A stretch of DNA of 62,262 nucleotides from Bacillota bacterium. Its GTDB lineage: Bacteria; Bacillota; Clostridia; Christensenellales; UMGS416. Location: assembly GCA_023409755.1 (NCBI GenBank), contig JAEYRA010000148.1:1-62262 (forward strand), in the 5' to 3' direction. The translations under genes and the position numbers were made by a program. Shown here piece after piece: positions 6,632-45,601 of the stretch. Position 1 is the stretch's first letter; every line of letters begins with the position of its first letter. The notes beneath the pieces were generated by a model. That model worked only from the letters and a program-made list of their open reading frames with translations. It was not told where the DNA came from and did not search any database.

Positions 6632-6698
6632 AACCTGTGGTGCATTGGGTCATGAAGGCCCCGCCACCTGACCTGGACACCAACGTAGAAATGGACTG

Positions 6699-6753
6699 CC
6701 ATGAAGGCCGTCGGACCGCAGCAGCGGGCCGCGCTTCATGGTATTTTTGTTTT
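6699..6753 (+). terminator. Leader terminator (attenuator) directly upstream of the cbiM RBS
   Basis: CCATGAAG (6699-6706) pairs with CTTCATGG (6734-6741) around a GC-rich interior, followed by TTTTTGTTTT. A second CATGAAGGCC copy at 6650-6659 could form an alternative pairing. Confidence 0.6.
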
Positions 6754-6768
6754 GAGGGGGATTTTGTC

Positions 6769-7827
6769 ATGCACATGTCAGATGCGCTCATCAGCCCCGT
6801 GGTCGGCGGTGTGCTGTGGGCCGGGGCCGTGGGGGCCGCGGCGTACTCGGCGCGCAAGCTCGCCAAGGACGACCTGATGGAGAGCCGCAAGGTACCCATG
6901 ATGGGCGTCATGGGGGCCTTCGTCTTTGCCGCGCAGATGATCAACTTCACCATCCCCGGCACAGGTTCCAGCGGCCACATCGGCGGCGGATTGCTGCTGG
7001 CCGCCCTGTTGGGGCCGGAGGCTGGCTTCCTGGTGCTGATGGCGGTGCTCGCCATTCAGGGGTTGTTCTTTGCCGATGGCGGTCTGCTGGCCATGGGCTG
7101 CAACATCATCAACATCGGCTTCTATGCCTGCTTCCTTGCCTATCCTTTGATTTTCAAACCGTTGACAGGCAAGGGCACTTCCCCGGGCCGCACTACGCTG
7201 GCGGCGGTGCTGTCGGTTGTGGTCGGGCTGCAGTTGGGGGCGTTCTCCGTGGTGTTGGAGACGCTGCTCAGTGGCCGCACCCAGCTTCCTTTTGGCTCCT
7301 TCCTGCTGCTGATGCAGCCCATTCACCTGGCCATCGGTGTGGTGGAGGGGCTCATCACCGCGGCGGTGCTGGTGTTCCTGCGCCGCGCCGCGCCGGAGGC
7401 CCTGCCGGAGAGCCAGACGTCGGTTTCCGGCGGTTTCCCCAAGCGGGCGGTGGCGATCGTGGCTGTGTTGACGCTGGTGACCGGCGGCGCGTTGTCGTGG
7501 TTGGCCTCCACCCACCCCGATGGGCTGGAGTGGTCGATTGCCGGTGTCACCGGGGGGAGCGAGTTGGCCTCCAGCGGCGCGGTGTACGACTCACTGGGCC
7601 AACTGCAGGAGAAGACGGCCTTCCTGCCGGACTATGGCTTCCGCGCACCGGCTGACGATGCGGCGGCGGAGGCCGAAGCACAGTGGCCGGCGGTCAGCGC
7701 GGGTACCTCGGTGGCCGGCGTGGTGGGCAGCGCACTTACACTGGCGGTGGCGGTGGCGGCGGGCCTGCTGCTGTGGCTGCCCCGACGCAGGCGAGCGGCG
7801 CGGGCGGCCCACGGCGACGCCGCTTGA
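6769..7827 (+). CDS. cbiM: ECF-type Co/Ni transporter substrate-capture component CbiM/NikM with C-terminal PDGLE (CbiN-like) extension
   Basis: MHMSDALISPVVGG...AAQMINFTIPGTGSSGHIGGG is the CbiM signature. The C-terminal part contains THPDGLEWSIAG (PDGLE domain) and a terminal TM helix. RBS GAGGGGGA. Confidence 0.85.
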   Translation: MHMSDALISPVVGGVLWAGAVGAAAYSARKLAKDDLMESRKVPMMGVMGAFVFAAQMINFTIPGTGSSGHIGGGLLLAALLGPEAGFLVLMAVLAIQGLFFADGGLLAMGCNIINIGFYACFLAYPLIFKPLTGKGTSPGRTTLAAVLSVVVGLQLGAFSVVLETLLSGRTQLPFGSFLLLMQPIHLAIGVVEGLITAAVLVFLRRAAPEALPESQTSVSGGFPKRAVAIVAVLTLVTGGALSWLASTHPDGLEWSIAGVTGGSELASSGAVYDSLGQLQEKTAFLPDYGFRAPADDAAAEAEAQWPAVSAGTSVAGVVGSALTLAVAVAAGLLLWLPRRRRAARAAHGDAA

Positions 7828-7887
7828 CAGGGTAGGGTCGGCAACACAACAGGCGGGCCGGCGGCCCGCCTCGACTTGTCAATAGAG

Positions 7888-8116
7888 GTGGGATAAGGAT
7901 TGGGAGTATGGGCCGACCGACGGTTTATCCGGCGGGAGGGAGACATAAATCAATGGAAAAAGCAGACGCAAAAACTCGCCCGTGGCGAAACGTATCCGAT
8001 GAAAGCTGCATGAGTGCTATGGGTGGGTATCGTTCGGCGACATGCGCGGCGAACGATACGAGAAAACCGAAACAAGCAGTCTGAATCGCGGACGTCGCCG
8101 CAGCGGCGTACGTGAA
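7888..8116 (+). repeat. Copy 1 of the multi-hairpin intergenic element family, between cbiM and cbiQ
   Basis: It shares the ordered motifs with the other five copies: HP1 CGACGG-TTTAT-CCGGCG + GGGAGG; CGCC-CGT-GGCG + AAACGTA; ATGAG; GTATCGTTCG-GCGACATGCGCGG-CGAACGATAC; AACAAGCAGTCTGAAT; and CGCGGACGTCGC-CGCA-GCGGCGTACGTG. Confidence 0.85.
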
Positions 8117-8135
8117 CCGAAGGAGGAACGGGCAA

Positions 8136-8942
8136 ATGGGTACGGCAGACCGGGCGATGGCGTCGTTGGGGCGCATGGAGGCGTTGACACGGCAGGACAC
8201 GCCCATTCACCGGCGGCACCCGCTGGCCCACCTGTTGGTGGCGCTAGGGTACCTCGTCACGCTGGCCTCCTTCAGGCGGTATGAGCTGGCTGGCCTGCTG
8301 CCCTTTCTCTTCTACCCGTTGGCGGTGGCCGCGCTGGGGGAGCTGCCGCTGGGGGACTTGATGCGACGGGGACTGCCGGTGCTGCCGCTGGTGCTGTTTC
8401 TCGGGGCGTTCAACCCCATCTTTGACCAGAACGTGCTGCTCTTTGCCGGGTATCGGCTGTCTGCGGGTTGGCTCTCTCTGGTGAGCATGACGCTGCGGGG
8501 GATACTGAGCGTGTTGGCGGCGCTGCTGCTGGCGGCCACCGCCGGTATGGCCGGGCTGGGCCGGGCGCTGGGGCTGCTGCGGGTGCCCCAGGTGATTGTG
8601 ACCCAACTGCTGTTCACCTACCGGTATCTCTTTGTGCTGGGGGGCGAGGGTGGCCGCATGTGGCTGGCGTACAGCCTGCGTGCCTCGGGGCAGCGGGGGG
8701 TGGCATTCCGCCAGTGGGGCAGCTTCGCCGGCCAGTGGCTGCTGCGCTCCCTCCACCGGGCGGAGCGCATCCACGCCGCCATGCTCTGCCGAGGGTTCGA
8801 CGGTGCCATGCCCGGGGGCCCGGCAGTTCCGTTCGCCTGGGCGGATGGCCTGTATGCCGCCGGGTGGATTGCCTTCTTTGTGGCTGCGCGGCTTGTGAAC
8901 CTGCCGCTGTGGCTGGGATCGCTGTTGATAGGAGGAACCTGA
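8136..8942 (+). CDS. cbiQ: ECF transporter transmembrane (T) component CbiQ
   Basis: RBS AGGAGG at 8121-8126 and ATG at 8136. Multi-TM protein with CbiQ-like sequence, positioned between cbiM and cbiO. Confidence 0.85.
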   Translation: MGTADRAMASLGRMEALTRQDTPIHRRHPLAHLLVALGYLVTLASFRRYELAGLLPFLFYPLAVAALGELPLGDLMRRGLPVLPLVLFLGAFNPIFDQNVLLFAGYRLSAGWLSLVSMTLRGILSVLAALLLAATAGMAGLGRALGLLRVPQVIVTQLLFTYRYLFVLGGEGGRMWLAYSLRASGQRGVAFRQWGSFAGQWLLRSLHRAERIHAAMLCRGFDGAMPGGPAVPFAWADGLYAAGWIAFFVAARLVNLPLWLGSLLIGGT

Positions 8943-9733: not shown

Positions 9734-10381
9734 ATGCGAAAGGGAACGCAGGTGTCGCTCATTGTGGCGGGCGCACTGCTGTGTGCGGCGGGGGTACTGA
9801 CCGCCGTCGTCCACGAGGTGTGGGGTGGCAGCATTCCGCTGTTCCCGAAGCTGGGGGTGGAACCCCAGCTGGGCGTGTTGGCCACGGCCCAGCCCTTCCC
9901 TACTGGGGTGGATGCCACCGCCCAGCCGGCGGGGGTGAACCTGGGTCAGACGCTGCCTGCGTCCACCTCGGCAGCTGGCGTCATCCGCGAAGACATGAGC
10001 GTCTTCTGGGTCACCCGCTACACCTCCTGCGGGCATGAGGTGGTGCGGGAGCGTGCTCCCGACCCCGAGACCATCGGCTGGAGCTACGATCGCTTTGCCC
10101 GGTATTACCCCGGCTACACCATGACACCCCTGGGCACGAACCTGCGGATGGAGCATGTCATCGCCCAGTATTGCCCTACCCATTACCTCATCCGCAGCGA
10201 TGAGAGCGGCGCCATCTACGTCTACCGCAATGTGGAGGGGGAGGGCACGCTGACCCAGCTGACCCGCATGAACTTCACCGTGGACATGGTACCGCAGGAT
10301 TACCAAGACCTTCTCAAGGAAGGCATGGTCTTTGACAGTCTGGAGGAAATCGAGGGGCTCATTGAGGACGCGGAGACGTGA
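9734..10381 (+). CDS. Membrane-anchored hypothetical protein
   Basis: RBS GGAGGGATGGG, an N-terminal TM helix and a conserved-looking C-terminal domain (YCPTHYLIRSDESGAIYVYR). Family not confidently recognised. Confidence 0.6.
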   Translation: MRKGTQVSLIVAGALLCAAGVLTAVVHEVWGGSIPLFPKLGVEPQLGVLATAQPFPTGVDATAQPAGVNLGQTLPASTSAAGVIREDMSVFWVTRYTSCGHEVVRERAPDPETIGWSYDRFARYYPGYTMTPLGTNLRMEHVIAQYCPTHYLIRSDESGAIYVYRNVEGEGTLTQLTRMNFTVDMVPQDYQDLLKEGMVFDSLEEIEGLIEDAET

Positions 10382-27821: not shown

Positions 27822-27918
27822 CTGGCATGGTTTTGCTACACAGGCGAGGAGGTGACGACCCAGGGGGCTTGCCCCTTGGGAATCCCCGCGATTCTTGTGT
27901 AGGCGAGTGCTGAAATGG

Positions 27919-28147
27919 CCCATTACGGAGCGAAGCCCCTGAACCCGCAGGCCGGTTCATCCGGCCAAGGGTCGAAGCAACTGGTGGTGGCACGCACCCC
28001 TTCCCGCCCGCAGGCGCGTCTCCTCGTAAAATTCATACGGCAAAATCAACAGAGAAGCCGCCCGGCGACCTGTGCGCCGGGCGGCAGTATGATAATCTCT
28101 GGCGAGCTTTCCTGCTCGCGACCGTCGCGAATGCGGCGGGCGCGAAC
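27919..28147 (+). repeat. Copy 2 (most diverged) of the multi-hairpin intergenic element family
   Basis: Motifs in the same order as the other copies: GGCCGG-TTCAT-CCGGCC (27950-27966); CGCC-CGCA-GGCG; GCCGCCCG-GCGACCTGTGCGC-CGGGCGGC; and CGCGACCGTCGC-GAAT-GCGGCGGGCGCG (28117-28144). It ends about 2-5 nt from the stop codon (28149-28151) of the convergent RidA gene. Confidence 0.75.
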
Positions 28148-28148
28148 G

Positions 28149-28610
28149 TCAGTCCTTGATAGAAAGGATCAGCTCGAACTCAGCGGCGGTGTTGCCCACC
28201 GGCATGTTGCGGCTGCCCATGATCGTGCGGGTGTGCACGCCACGGTTGCGGAAGACCTCATACAGCACGTCGGCAAAGCCGTCATAGACCTTGTCGAGGT
28301 CATGGAAGTCGTCGTCGCAGGCGATGAGCCCGAAGCCTTTGATGATCTGATCCACGCGATCCAGATCGCCGAGCTCCTCACGGATCATCATGAGCTGGAT
28401 GAGGGCGATGTGCTGGCAGGCGGCGTAGCCATCCTCAATGGTCAGGTCCCGGCCGATGAGGCCCTGACGGAACTCGGCGCAGCCGGAGCCGGAGGTGTAG
28501 AGCAGGTTGCCGACCCGGCGGCACCCAACGAGCGCCCGGCCCTTGTAGCTCAGGTAGTCGATGTCCAGTTCCTTTGCCTTTTTATCCAAAAGATCGTTGA
28601 TGGCAGACAT
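28149..28610 (-). CDS. RidA/YjgF/TdcF family (reactive enamine/imine deaminase-like) protein
   Basis: RBS AAGGAGGAG before MSAINDLL... About 153 aa with a YjgF-fold sequence. Last gene of the operon. Confidence 0.85.
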   Translation of the reverse strand: MSAINDLLDKKAKELDIDYLSYKGRALVGCRRVGNLLYTSGSGCAEFRQGLIGRDLTIEDGYAACQHIALIQLMMIREELGDLDRVDQIIKGFGLIACDDDFHDLDKVYDGFADVLYEVFRNRGVHTRTIMGSRNMPVGNTAAEFELILSIKD

Positions 28611-40666: not shown

Positions 40667-43039
40667 ATGATGGAACATCGCATCAAAACGCTGTACATTG
40701 TCCACCACTCCCACACCGACATCGGCTACACCGACCTGCAGGAGCGCATCGTCGACGTGCAGGTGGAGCACATCCGTGCGGCCATCCGCGACCTCACCCA
40801 ACCTGAGAACCAGGAGTTCCGGTGGAACTGCGAGACCTACTTCTGTGTGGAGCGATTCCTGGAAGTGGCGAGCGTTGAGGAACGCCGCCAATTCTTCGCC
40901 CTGGCGCGGCAGGGGCGCATCGGCGTCTCCGCCACCTATTTAAACTTCAATGACCTGGTGGATGCCGATGTGCTGAAGCGCCGCACCGCTGAGATGGTCG
41001 GCGTCTTCGGCGGGGAGGATATCCCCGTGCGCACGGCCATGATTGCCGATATCAACGGCATCTCCATGGGCCAGCGGGATGCCCTGCTTGCCAACGGTGT
41101 GGAGTTCCTGTTCACCAACATCCACACCCACCACGGCATGTACCCCCTGTGGCGCAACCAGAACGCCTATTGGTGGGAGAATGCCGCCGGCCAGCAGCTG
41201 CTGGTGTGGAACGGCGAGCACTACAACCTTGGAAACGCTCTGGGCATCAAGCCCAACCGCATCAACTACTATATGGAGCGCAACTACTTCGGCGACCAGC
41301 ACCTCATGGATGGGGTGGAAAACCTGCATAAGAACCTGGAGCACTACCTCGCCGAGTGCGAGGAGGCTGGTTACCCCTACGACTTCATCGTGAGCGGCGT
41401 GTCCGGCGTGTTCAGTGACAACGCCCCACCCAGCCCCGAGATTCTGCGCACCATCGAGGCGTATCACCACCGGTATGGCGACGCTGTCCGGCTCCAGATG
41501 GTATCCCTGCAGGAGCTGTACGCCGCCATCGCCGACCGGCTGGGGGATCTGCCGGTCTACCATGGCGATCTCACCGACTGGTGGGCCAACGGCGTGGGCT
41601 CGGCCCCCGGTGCGGTCAAGCACTACCGCGCGGCCCAACGCATGTTCCGGCTGGCCAATACCCTGGACGACGGCCTGCGGGCCGGCTTCCCGGCCGTCAC
41701 CCGCGTGGTGGAGGACAATCTCCTGCTCTACGCCGAGCACACCTTCGGTCACTCGGCCACCGTGTCCAACCCCTATGAGACCCAGGTGCGCGACCTGGAA
41801 ATGCGCAAGTCGAGCTATGCCTCCAAGGCCCACGAGGGAGCGGCGAAACTTTTGAACCAGGCGCTGCTGCGGCGTGGCGGCACGCTGCTTTATTACAACA
41901 CCGACGGCATCATCCGTGCCACCAACGCCGGGTCTGCCGGCAGCCACCCGGTGGAGTTTTATGTGGAGACGATGACGCTCCCGGCGGTGCGAGTCACCAA
42001 CACCGGCACCGGCGATGAAATGACGGTGCAGCTCTCCACCCACCCGCGCGGGGTGCGCGTCACCTTTGTGGACGCCTTCGCCGCTGGGGAGAGCAAGGAG
42101 TACCGTTATGAGGAGCTGCCCGCGCCGCTCGTTACCCTCAATACCCGCCATGCCTTCGTAGGGGCCGAGCGGGTGCGCGACGTCGTCAACGACTTCGACC
42201 CCGAAACCTACCGCCTGACCAATGAGGTGGAGAACCCGTGGTTCCGCATCACCTACCGCGTGGGCAAGGGCTTCACGGCCTTTGTGAACAAGACGACCGG
42301 GCAGGACATGCTGGGCAGCGGCTTGGCACGGTTCTTCACCCCGGTGTATGAGCGCACCGAGCTGCGCCACCCTGCCTATGAGGAGCGGGCGCTGCTGGGC
42401 CGCAACATCCGCGGCGTCCACGCCGAGCAGTATGCCGGGGAGATGACCGGCGTGCGTTGCATCGACCAGGGGCCGGTGTTCACCACGCTGGAGTTCTCCT
42501 TCCGGCTGGAGGGGACGCGCCAGTGCTTCGTGCTGCTGCGGGTATACCGCACGCTGCCCCGGCTGGACTTCGCCCTGCGGCTCGCGAAGAATCTCTCCGA
42601 CGACATCGAGAGCGTTTACCTTCCCTTGGAGCTTAGCCTGCCCGGTCGGCAGGCTTGGCTGCGTAAAGGGGCCGAGGCCTTCCGCCCGGGTGTGGACCAG
42701 ATCCCCGGCACGTGCATGGAGTATTGGTCGACCGACGAGGGCGTGGCCTACCTCAATGCTGGGCAGGCGGTGCAGGTGTTCACCCCCGACACCCCCCTCG
42801 TCTACATGGGTGAGCTGCAGCACCACCCCATTGCCCTGTGCGATGGCAAGGAGGAGAATAACCGCCGTCCCGTCTGGTCGTGGGTGATGAACAACACCTG
42901 GGAGACCAACTTTCCGTTGGATCTGTCGGGCTTCTATGAGTTCAACTACCGGCTGGACCTGAGCGACGCCACCGATGCCGAGGCCTGCCTCGATGAGATG
43001 GCCGCCAAGTCCCTGGGCGTGTTCACCCATATGGTGTAG
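40667..43039 (+). CDS. Glycoside hydrolase family 38-like protein (alpha-mannosidase-related)
   Basis: N-terminal TLYIVHHSHTDIGYT resembles the GH38 metal-binding HSHxDxG motif. 790 aa. RBS GGAGGAG. Confidence 0.75.
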   Translation: MMEHRIKTLYIVHHSHTDIGYTDLQERIVDVQVEHIRAAIRDLTQPENQEFRWNCETYFCVERFLEVASVEERRQFFALARQGRIGVSATYLNFNDLVDADVLKRRTAEMVGVFGGEDIPVRTAMIADINGISMGQRDALLANGVEFLFTNIHTHHGMYPLWRNQNAYWWENAAGQQLLVWNGEHYNLGNALGIKPNRINYYMERNYFGDQHLMDGVENLHKNLEHYLAECEEAGYPYDFIVSGVSGVFSDNAPPSPEILRTIEAYHHRYGDAVRLQMVSLQELYAAIADRLGDLPVYHGDLTDWWANGVGSAPGAVKHYRAAQRMFRLANTLDDGLRAGFPAVTRVVEDNLLLYAEHTFGHSATVSNPYETQVRDLEMRKSSYASKAHEGAAKLLNQALLRRGGTLLYYNTDGIIRATNAGSAGSHPVEFYVETMTLPAVRVTNTGTGDEMTVQLSTHPRGVRVTFVDAFAAGESKEYRYEELPAPLVTLNTRHAFVGAERVRDVVNDFDPETYRLTNEVENPWFRITYRVGKGFTAFVNKTTGQDMLGSGLARFFTPVYERTELRHPAYEERALLGRNIRGVHAEQYAGEMTGVRCIDQGPVFTTLEFSFRLEGTRQCFVLLRVYRTLPRLDFALRLAKNLSDDIESVYLPLELSLPGRQAWLRKGAEAFRPGVDQIPGTCMEYWSTDEGVAYLNAGQAVQVFTPDTPLVYMGELQHHPIALCDGKEENNRRPVWSWVMNNTWETNFPLDLSGFYEFNYRLDLSDATDAEACLDEMAAKSLGVFTHMV

Positions 43040-43047
43040 CGGCCTTC

Positions 43048-43275
43048 GGCCTTTCGCGGTTGCCGCTGTGGCGACAGCCGCGATTCAGGCAACTTGTCCT
43101 TGACATGTGTGTCGCCCGCCGTACATGCCGCCGGGCGACATCGTAGCTTTCTCGCTCATGCTGTGTCTGGGAAACGATGTTCGCTTGTGGGCGGGTTTCT
43201 GTTTCCTGCCTGTGCCAGATACACTGTTCCTCCCGCCGAATGAATCGGCGGTCGGTTCGGGGTTGACCTCTTGAA
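43048..43275 (-). repeat. Copy 3 of the multi-hairpin intergenic element family (only minus-strand copy)
   Basis: The reverse complement carries CCGCCG-ATTCATT-CGGCGG+GAGG, CGC-CCACAA-GCG, ATGAGCG, GTCGCCCG-GCGGCATGTACGG-CGGGCGAC, CTGAAT and CGCGGCTGTCGC-CACA-GCGGCAACCGCG + AAAGG. Confidence 0.85.
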
Positions 43276-43292
43276 ACAGCTTTTTAGGTGTT

Positions 43293-43324
43293 GCGCCCGT
43301 CAGTTCCGCTGGCGGGCGTTTTTC
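43293..43324. terminator. Terminator-like hairpin between the GH38-like gene and pta
   Basis: GCGCCCGTCAG-TTCCG-CTGGCGGGCG followed by TTTTT, with an A-run on the other side. Confidence 0.6.
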
Positions 43325-43386
43325 TATGCGAAACTGCCGTTTACGGGTATAATGAGGGCAGAAACCGCGCGAAGGGGGTGCTGACG

Positions 43387-45231: not shown

Positions 45232-45347
45232 ATGGGGTTGCCGCAAGGCGTGAATGGAGGTTGATCTGAAGAATCCCCGTAGGGGTTTGTCAGACAGAAA
45301 AACCGGGACGCACATCTGGGTGTTGGCGCAGGCTGTCAAAAAATCGG

Positions 45348-45573
45348 CACAGGAAGAAATAGAGTGAGCCGAGCGCCGGTTCATCCGGCGGGAGGGAGCA
45401 ATTGTGGGCGTGAATACCAAATAAAATCCCGCCCGTAGGCGAAACGTATTTCCCCCAGAACCCGTATGGACGCTATCACTTGGTATCGTTCGGCGACATG
45501 TGCGGCGAACGATACGACGAAATGGGAACAAGCACTCTGAATCGCGGCTGTCGCAACAGCGGCAGACGCGAAA
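45348..45573 (+). repeat. Copy 4 (reference copy) of the multi-hairpin intergenic element family
   Basis: HP1 CGCCGG-TTCAT-CCGGCG (45374-45390) + GGGAGG; HP2 CGCC-CGTA-GGCG + AAACGTA; ATGGA; HP3 GTATCGTTCG (45483-45492) / 13-nt loop GCGACATGTGCGG / CGAACGATAC (45506-45515); GAACAAGCACTCTGAAT; HP4 CGCGGCTGTCGC-AACA-GCGGCAGACGCG (45543-45570). Confidence 0.9.
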
Positions 45574-45601
45574 AACCGGGACGCACGTCTGCGTCCCGGT
45601 T
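45569..45601 (-). terminator. Intrinsic terminator of degV (minus strand)
   Basis: AACCGGGACGCA-CGTC-TGCGTCCCGGTT. On the minus strand it is followed by TTTTTC, which overlaps the 3' end of repeat copy 4. Confidence 0.7.

Follow-up and report, generated by a model that had tools for sequence, protein, structure and literature searches.

A gene-less structured repeat flanked by duplicated terminator hairpins in an uncultured genus of Bacillota

Results

A repeat copy separates a GH38-like gene from its terminator

We analysed a 62,262-nt stretch of DNA (the window) from a metagenome-assembled genome (MAG) of an uncultured member of the Bacillota, referred to as G000 (96% complete, 3.06 Mb, 208 contigs). 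A GH38-like gene in the window ends with a stop codon at 43037-43039, and the T-run of its terminator occupies 43320-43324. Between stop codon and terminator, and antisense to the gene, lies one copy of a dispersed repeat (copy 3, Table 1). Read in its own direction, copy 3 consists of a left end CAACACCTAAAAAG (from 43292 downward), a four-helix core, and a short hairpin at its terminus (43051-43041), into which the 3' end ..CGCGAAAGG leads. This terminal hairpin is the local form of a variable 3'-terminal helix. The GH38 terminator has plus-strand polarity, opposite to copy 3. The predicted fold of copy 3 is more stable than that of shuffled sequences (z = -5.1).

The initial annotation described copy 3 as the sole minus-strand copy in the window, with its 3' end at a GGCC-TTC-GGCC hairpin beside the GH38 stop codon. 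Both statements hold, with one base separating hairpin and stop codon. Its placement of copy 3 next to the terminator hairpin was also correct, but the gap of ~20 nt that it gave shrinks to 0 nt in the family alignment.

A sister MAG, 'Bacillota bacterium OH_SBrB_79' (G003), whose flanking DNA is ~90% identical to that of G000, holds an orthologous copy 3 with the same junctions, including an identical junction on the stop-codon side. As copies 3, 4 and 5 are occupied in both genomes, copy 3 predates their split. It is an old insertion that has retained its 5' hairpin and lost the 3' hairpin copy. The G003 ortholog (L020; C41, about 50660-50930) carries ~135 nt of extra sequence between P4 and P3; its P4 helix and stop-codon junction are almost identical to those of copy 3, and the linkers have strongly diverged.

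Table 1. Repeat copies and associated hairpins in the window
Feature	Position	Strand	Remarks
Copy 1	7871-8116	+	Directly after hairpin 7852-7870; 3' end truncated just short of a ribosome-binding site
Weak sixth copy	27909-28151		Profile search
Copy 3	43041-43292	-	nhmmer match 43048-43290, E = 5e-57; alignment with other copies
Short terminal hairpin GGCC-GAA-GGCC at copy 3 3' end	43041-43051	-	Plus-strand reading GGCC-TTC-GGCC
Target hairpin of copy 3, terminator of GH38-like gene	43293-43319	+	12 pairs, tail TTTTCTATGC (consensus scan)
Copy 4	45327-45575	+	Alignment; direct flank match GGGACGCACATCTGGGT / GGGACGCACGTCTGCGT
Copy 5 upstream hairpin copy ACGCCGCCTTGGGGCGGCGTT	47804-47824	+	
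Copy 5	47825-48173	+	Only complete copy in the window; both terminal inverted repeats
Extra module in copy 5, ~80 nt	47980-48062		
Copy 5 downstream hairpin copy ACGCCGCCTTTGGGCGGCGTT	48174-48194	+	Followed by a T-run
Copy 6	49722-49970	+	1-2 nt past the bidirectional trpB-side terminator 49695-49720

Further copies in the window

The window contains five solid copies of ~245 nt each, copy 6 among them; a further match, at 27909-28151, proved weak. Copy 5 is the clean case of duplication, reading ACGCCGCCTTGGGGCGGCGTT / element / ACGCCGCCTTTGGGCGGCGTT-TT. Copy 4 is flanked by a decayed hairpin copy upstream (45303-45326) and an intact one downstream (45576-45599); it is oriented against the polarity of its own hairpin, and its site is occupied in G003 too (L095). 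Copy 6 is truncated at its 3' end and reaches into the end of a convergent gene.

All of these copies had been placed a short distance downstream of hairpins. The association survives our alignment and the distances do not: copies 1 and 5 start directly after their hairpins, rather than ~15 and ~7 nt away, and copy 6 begins 1-2 nt, not 4-5 nt, past the trpB-side terminator. For copy 4, the hairpin CCCC-GTA-GGGG had been named, and the relevant one is instead the decayed upstream copy of its downstream hairpin.

Copy 1 sits within an operon, between tandem genes at 6637-7827 and 8112-8942, and ends a few bases 5' of the downstream ribosome-binding site. The extra module of copy 5 is itself repeated, with at least 48 BLAST matches in the genome, of which 33 lie within or next to element copies, at differing sites in their interior, and 15 lie apart from them. 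The module could represent a mini-element nested in the repeat, or a domain that is optional.

Terminator hairpins adjoin the element and are duplicated around it

We defined adjacency as a Watson-Crick hairpin of at least 7 bp ending no more than 10 nt from the 5' end of the element. The genome-wide enrichment that the initial annotation proposed to look for is present: 40 of 116 G000 loci have such a hairpin, against 5.4% of random intergenic positions (binomial p = 7e-22) and 3.6% of random positions, and the proportion rises to 24/54 (44%) among loci with a well-defined left end. The sister genome G003 replicates this result (43/91 against a control of 4.1%; 37/56 with well-defined left ends), so that adjacency exceeds the controls 8-10 times in both genomes.

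In complete copies, the same locus-specific hairpin recurs directly after the 3' end of the element. The match between upstream and downstream flanks exceeds the 99th percentile of mismatched flank pairs at 17 of 91 loci, and in 12 of the 19 complete copies, which have kept the right end. Across 18 complete copies from two genomes, the duplicated stretch spans 17-31 nt (median 24). Its limits are those of the hairpin: in 16/18 its two ends fall within 2 nt of the first and 1 nt of the last hairpin base, respectively, and in 17/18 the downstream hairpin starts at the first base past the right end of the element. The duplicated hairpins have no sequence in common.

The two hairpin copies have not survived equally. 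Over 82 loci, the upstream hairpin is preserved in 34 and the downstream one in 19; a recognised right end is absent from 63 of the 82 copies, and ~20 loci retain one. Since the hairpin is duplicated on both sides and the 3' side is lost more often, copies appear always to lie downstream of a hairpin, and the constant arrangement 'same orientation, 3' of hairpin' described earlier is largely a by-product of these two processes.

Some flanking hairpins have changed in ways of their own. At C11:262-535 of G000, the loop of the downstream hairpin is reverse-complemented relative to the upstream one (atttct versus agaaat). At three G003 loci (L088, L041, L073), the upstream hairpin comes closer to a perfect palindrome than the lone hairpin of the empty G000 site. 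A compensatory pair change is among the differences, giving the impression that one arm served as template for the other. At a further G003 locus (L068, compared with G000 C152, about 10005-10030), two unrelated hairpins flank the element; of these, the empty G000 site has only the downstream one, and the upstream one, GGCCCCGCCAGCGGCGGGGCC, may have travelled with the element.

Empty orthologous sites carry a single hairpin

We searched G003 for the joined flanks of 23 G000 copies and, reciprocally, compared 22 G003 copies with their orthologous G000 sites. G003 is empty at 8 of the 23 G000 loci, each contiguous and with a single hairpin, and G000 is empty at 13 of the 22 G003 loci, where both flanks overlap by one hairpin length. 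The filled state thus has a duplicated hairpin and the empty state has one, whatever the direction of change. In this comparison of two genomes, gain of the element and its loss, by deletion between the hairpin copies, are both possible origins of any single presence/absence difference.

Copy 6 is among the polymorphic loci, its G003 ortholog site (L025; C41:57600-58230) having no element and a single hairpin. The empty site keeps the original last codons and stop codon of the convergent gene; in G000, copy 6 and a ~35-nt deletion have replaced the end of that gene (49948-49970), which now terminates within the P4 helix.

The family is old and restricted to one genus

An nhmmer profile built from the window copies gave 151 matches in G000, corresponding to ~150 loci and roughly 1% of the genome. 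By nearest-neighbour identity (median 79%, maximum 95%) the copies are old, and recent activity cannot be demonstrated. The repeat is present in four of the seven genomes of a single genus, and was not found in 34 further genomes of the family and order. A scan of 185,579 species genomes for the exact P1 motif returned only the sister MAGs OH_SBrB_79, OH_CBB_189 and OH_PDB_213, apart from one chance match, and the same motif had no real match in JGI metagenome contigs, where two chance matches fell in coding DNA. Tandem arrays of two or more element copies occur in G000 at C65:4118-4600, C4:50883-51338, C44:20808-21297 and C189:43098-43553; they fit the re-use of a duplicated hairpin as a new target.

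Gene context and orientation

Among 80 classifiable loci, 42 lie between convergent genes, 31 between tandem genes and 7 between divergent genes. Convergent spacers make up 15% of all spacers, and the excess of elements in them is highly significant (p = 2.5e-15). The 31 loci in tandem spacers divide almost evenly: 15 elements point the same way as the genes and 16 the opposite way. This random orientation fits terminators that are targeted as DNA structures, rather than expression by read-through or a role in cis for the upstream transcript.

Element anatomy and fold

The element is about 243-278 bp long, longer variants carrying inserted modules, and its translations have no common conserved start or reading frame. 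Complete copies start with TCAGAGTGTCTACAAAC and end with GTCGACAGCCTGA. In the consensus drawn from 30 complete copies of two genomes, the left end TCAGAGTGTCTACAAA matches the reverse complement of the right end, which reads TCAGGCTGTCGACAAA, at 13/16 positions. The bounds of the element can be written TCAGAGTGTCTACAAA...TTTGTCGACAGCCTGA.

The interior folds into four helices, P1-P4, with an additional long-range pairing. RNAalifold applied to 138 copies gave only a minimal consensus, and pairs were therefore counted on a hand-set structure. On this structure P3 and P4 show covariation: a given position holds several kinds of Watson-Crick pair (GC 70 / TA 32 / CG 27 in one instance). The 3' helix, a bulge-free stem of 12 bp, contains a G-A mismatch, and the terminal helices P1 and P4 are unrelated to each other. 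The stems contain a modest excess of G-T (143) over A-C (100), and one T-G pair occurs in 92/135 copies; both hint weakly that the given strand is the one that folds, though the T-G pair may have been inherited from the source copy. A search of Rfam 15 returned no family at gathering score, and only chance-level matches at E up to 5.

Comparison of orthologous G000 and G003 copies revealed that stems are 89.9% identical and the non-stem core 72.8% (Fisher p = 4e-19), a difference to which three effects could contribute: biased alignment of the linkers, separate insertions into one and the same hairpin, and templated correction from arm to arm within palindromes. Three ortholog pairs free of indels differ in the same direction, their stems being better conserved. 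This pattern suggests a constraint on the fold after insertion.

Search for a mobilising enzyme

G000 was searched for genes with rve, RVT_1, DDE_Tnp_1, DDE_Tnp_1_6, Y1_Tnp, TnpB, IS110, Cas1, ISNCY_1 and ISNCY_2 domains, and none was found; a search of all seven genomes of the genus likewise returned no ISNCY-type transposase. In the sister genomes G003, G001 and G005, the rve genes present are of IS3 or IS30 type, with ends unrelated to the repeat. They include an intact IS3-family element with orfA/orfB and the terminal repeat TGAACTGCACCCC (L111, G003:C49) and an IS30-like transposase gene at a contig end (L117, G001:C15), neither of which has ends in common with the repeat.

The initial annotation also proposed a search for a larger autonomous element with the same ends. 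Among the genome's loci there is no split copy that encloses a gene, inverted pairs of the terminal motif 0.5-6 kb apart amount to noise, and clustering of contig ends, aimed at any other repeat that might be a collapsed insertion sequence, yielded this element family as its sole large cluster. Neither G000 nor its genus, which the searches covered in part, yielded a parent insertion sequence with these ends; the assemblies are MAGs and leave its absence unproven.

Discussion

We identify a family of short, structured, gene-less repeats whose copies lie at the feet of terminator hairpins. Integration took place at both feet of the hairpin, and the entire hairpin, whatever its sequence or length, was duplicated; the direction of the flanking genes was disregarded. 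The structure-directed targeting suggested by the initial annotation is supported by the lack of any common hairpin sequence, by a duplication that tracks hairpin length, and by empty sites with one hairpin. We consider it probable that the repeat is a non-autonomous DNA transposable element of about 250-275 bp that inserts at terminator-hairpin feet, leaving a whole hairpin on both sides irrespective of gene direction, and that it was moved by an enzyme acting in trans. Such an enzyme, encoded elsewhere and possibly no longer present, would recognise the extruded hairpin or cruciform, attack both strands at the base of the structure, and join the inverted-repeat ends there. The two feet would be adjacent in the extruded form, and an ordinary short stagger would thereby become a stagger of one hairpin length in linear DNA. 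Gap repair would then duplicate the hairpin.

Several other readings have to be weighed against this proposal. That the copies are structured-RNA genes or 3'-UTR modules, expressed by read-through or acting in cis on the upstream transcript, would account for the covarying helices, the modest G-T excess, the better conservation of stems than linkers among orthologs and the stable predicted fold of copy 3. We nevertheless regard this reading as improbable: orientation in tandem spacers is random, copies 3 and 4 oppose the polarity of their own hairpins, with copy 3 antisense to GH38, a promoter scan and Rfam returned neither a conserved promoter nor a match, and expression leaves polymorphic sites with hairpin duplication unexplained. 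The same observations on orientation and on copy 3 speak against the read-through offered by the initial annotation. Spread without any dedicated enzyme is very improbable in our judgement. It would proceed by template switching (copy choice) at terminator hairpins that stall replication, guided by microhomology between the element ends (..TT/CAGAG, GCGAAAGG..) and terminator T- or A-tracts, and some details are of the kind it predicts: in several copies, such as copy 4 and C173, no clear border separates the 3' end GCGAAAGG from the A-tract and the beginning of the downstream stem, and the flipped loop at C11 and the several 'perfected' upstream hairpins are patterns typical of template switching in palindromes. 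The junctions of complete copies are, however, precise and constant and carry inverted-repeat termini, and an untargeted error process would have had to act independently at ~150 unrelated hairpins, an extraordinary rate.

Spread through an RNA intermediate, with reverse transcription placing copies after terminators as in class C group II introns, has in its favour the same class of target, terminator stem-loops, and a conserved, strand-specific fold. It is nonetheless highly improbable, given that no RVT_1 gene was found in the genome, that Rfam returned no group II or other match at E up to 5, and that ~250 nt are too few for intron domains I-VI; the 12-bp 3' helix with its G-A mismatch is not a domain V with a 2-nt bulge, and whole-hairpin duplication and terminal inverted repeats are features foreign to introns. 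We do not take the repeat for such an intron, which the initial annotation had named for comparison, there being neither a reverse transcriptase nor an intron RNA match, and a target duplication being present. Finally, the flanking hairpin might have been a variable helix of the element itself and not its target, which would agree with its conserved structure and copy-specific sequence; empty orthologous sites, which keep the hairpin as a gene terminator where the element is missing, refute the hairpin as an element part and leave this reading a negligible probability.

We return to transposition into terminator hairpins and to the conserved fold. Stem conservation at orthologous copies is not anticipated for purely selfish, dead DNA, and we count it against our preferred explanation. 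It indicates that a folded single strand, DNA or RNA, probably matters, either for mobilisation or for later use by the host. A bolder version would hold that gene-less elements of Clostridia-like bacteria are moved by undescribed machinery that reads shape, in the form of extruded terminator cruciforms, and not sequence, and that the four-helix core is a functional folded single strand, serving as cofactor or substrate of that machinery or as an RNA recruited by the host, and selected as such at orthologous sites. We consider this version possible but doubtful.

To our knowledge, structure-defined insertion is rare among bacterial transposons. Group II introns of class C are ribozymes that measure 400 nt or more and in most cases come with a reverse transcriptase; they insert in one orientation and produce no duplication. 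They reportedly insert just downstream of intrinsic terminator stem-loops, by structure, in work of Robart, Seo and Zimmerly in 2007. The target class is all that they and the repeat have in common; Rfam gave the repeat no intron match at the gathering threshold or at E up to 5, and its 3' helix lacks the domain V bulge.

[quoted passage not shown] Typical MITEs have a sequence-defined target duplication of 2-10 bp; that of the repeat is atypical in its length and its hairpin-defined limits, and a parent insertion sequence with the same ends, a further property of MITEs, was not encountered in G000 or the genus. Bacterial MITEs and structured repeats (Correia, ERIC, BOX, RUP, SPRITE, REP/BIME) are small, non-coding, high-copy and intergenic, with terminal inverted repeats, stably folding transcripts or strands, and flanking repeats that decay with age (PMC10969869), and the repeat resembles them in all of these features. 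None of the MITEs listed in that review duplicates a whole terminator hairpin. A derivation from IS200/IS605 (PATE) or from REP/RAYT elements was rejected, as neither a Y1_Tnp nor a TnpB gene was found in G000, P1 and P4 are unrelated, and a target duplication is present.

The footprint itself appears to be of a known kind, for which the nearest precedent seems to be IS1630 of Mycoplasma fermentans, judging by the title of Calcutt et al. 1999 as cited in PMC7648426. The empty-site and duplication data give the repeat an IS1630-like behaviour. For ISMhom-1, PMC7648426 gives direct and inverted repeats of 6-15 nt. IS1630 and ISMhom-1 (IS30 family) are described as autonomous, measuring 1.2-1.4 kb, encoding an IS30-type transposase and ending in terminal repeats of 27 bp, whereas the repeat described here is gene-less, with a 16-bp imperfect terminal repeat and a conserved multi-helix interior. 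An IS30-type DDE transposase (HTH + rve) was not found in G000, and the sole IS30-like gene, in G001, has unrelated ends.

IS1272/TnSha1 elements (IS1182 family) of staphylococci insert into terminator hairpins in either orientation and with no primary-sequence specificity (PMC4923244; PMC5678879). Unlike the repeat, which duplicates the whole hairpin, IS1272 deletes or replaces part of it and makes no target duplication, and neither a DDE_Tnp_1 nor a DDE_Tnp_1_6 gene turned up in G000. The IS1202 subgroup of the IS1202 family, from Firmicutes, has direct target repeats of 27-28 bp and TGT-containing termini (bioRxiv 10.1101/2022.12.17.520857). Its repeat length is fixed by transposase subgroup, whereas that of the element described here varies over 17-31 nt and tracks each hairpin. 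A fixed-length stagger of the IS1202 kind was ruled out on this ground.

Our data provide a clean structure-defined footprint, in which the duplicated target is the terminator hairpin itself and the element ends lie at the exact feet of the stem-loop. The responsible enzyme, once identified, could help to explain the recognition of cruciform or hairpin DNA by a recombinase. Copies at gene ends add a second terminator, extend 3' UTRs and, at some loci, replace the final codons of convergent genes; the repeat has thus shaped gene ends, and broken assemblies, in this lineage. For annotation, a hairpin followed by a structured repeat at gene ends here should not be taken for a riboswitch, an sRNA gene or a group II intron.

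Many old copies end in ..GCGAAAGG followed by a short variable hairpin (GGC..GCC) and CTA or TTA, an arrangement comparable to that at 43037-43051. The CTA or TTA is the stop codon of the convergent gene, and TTTCGCG follows the hairpin on the opposite strand. The short variable hairpin at such ends may now serve as the terminator of the convergent gene.
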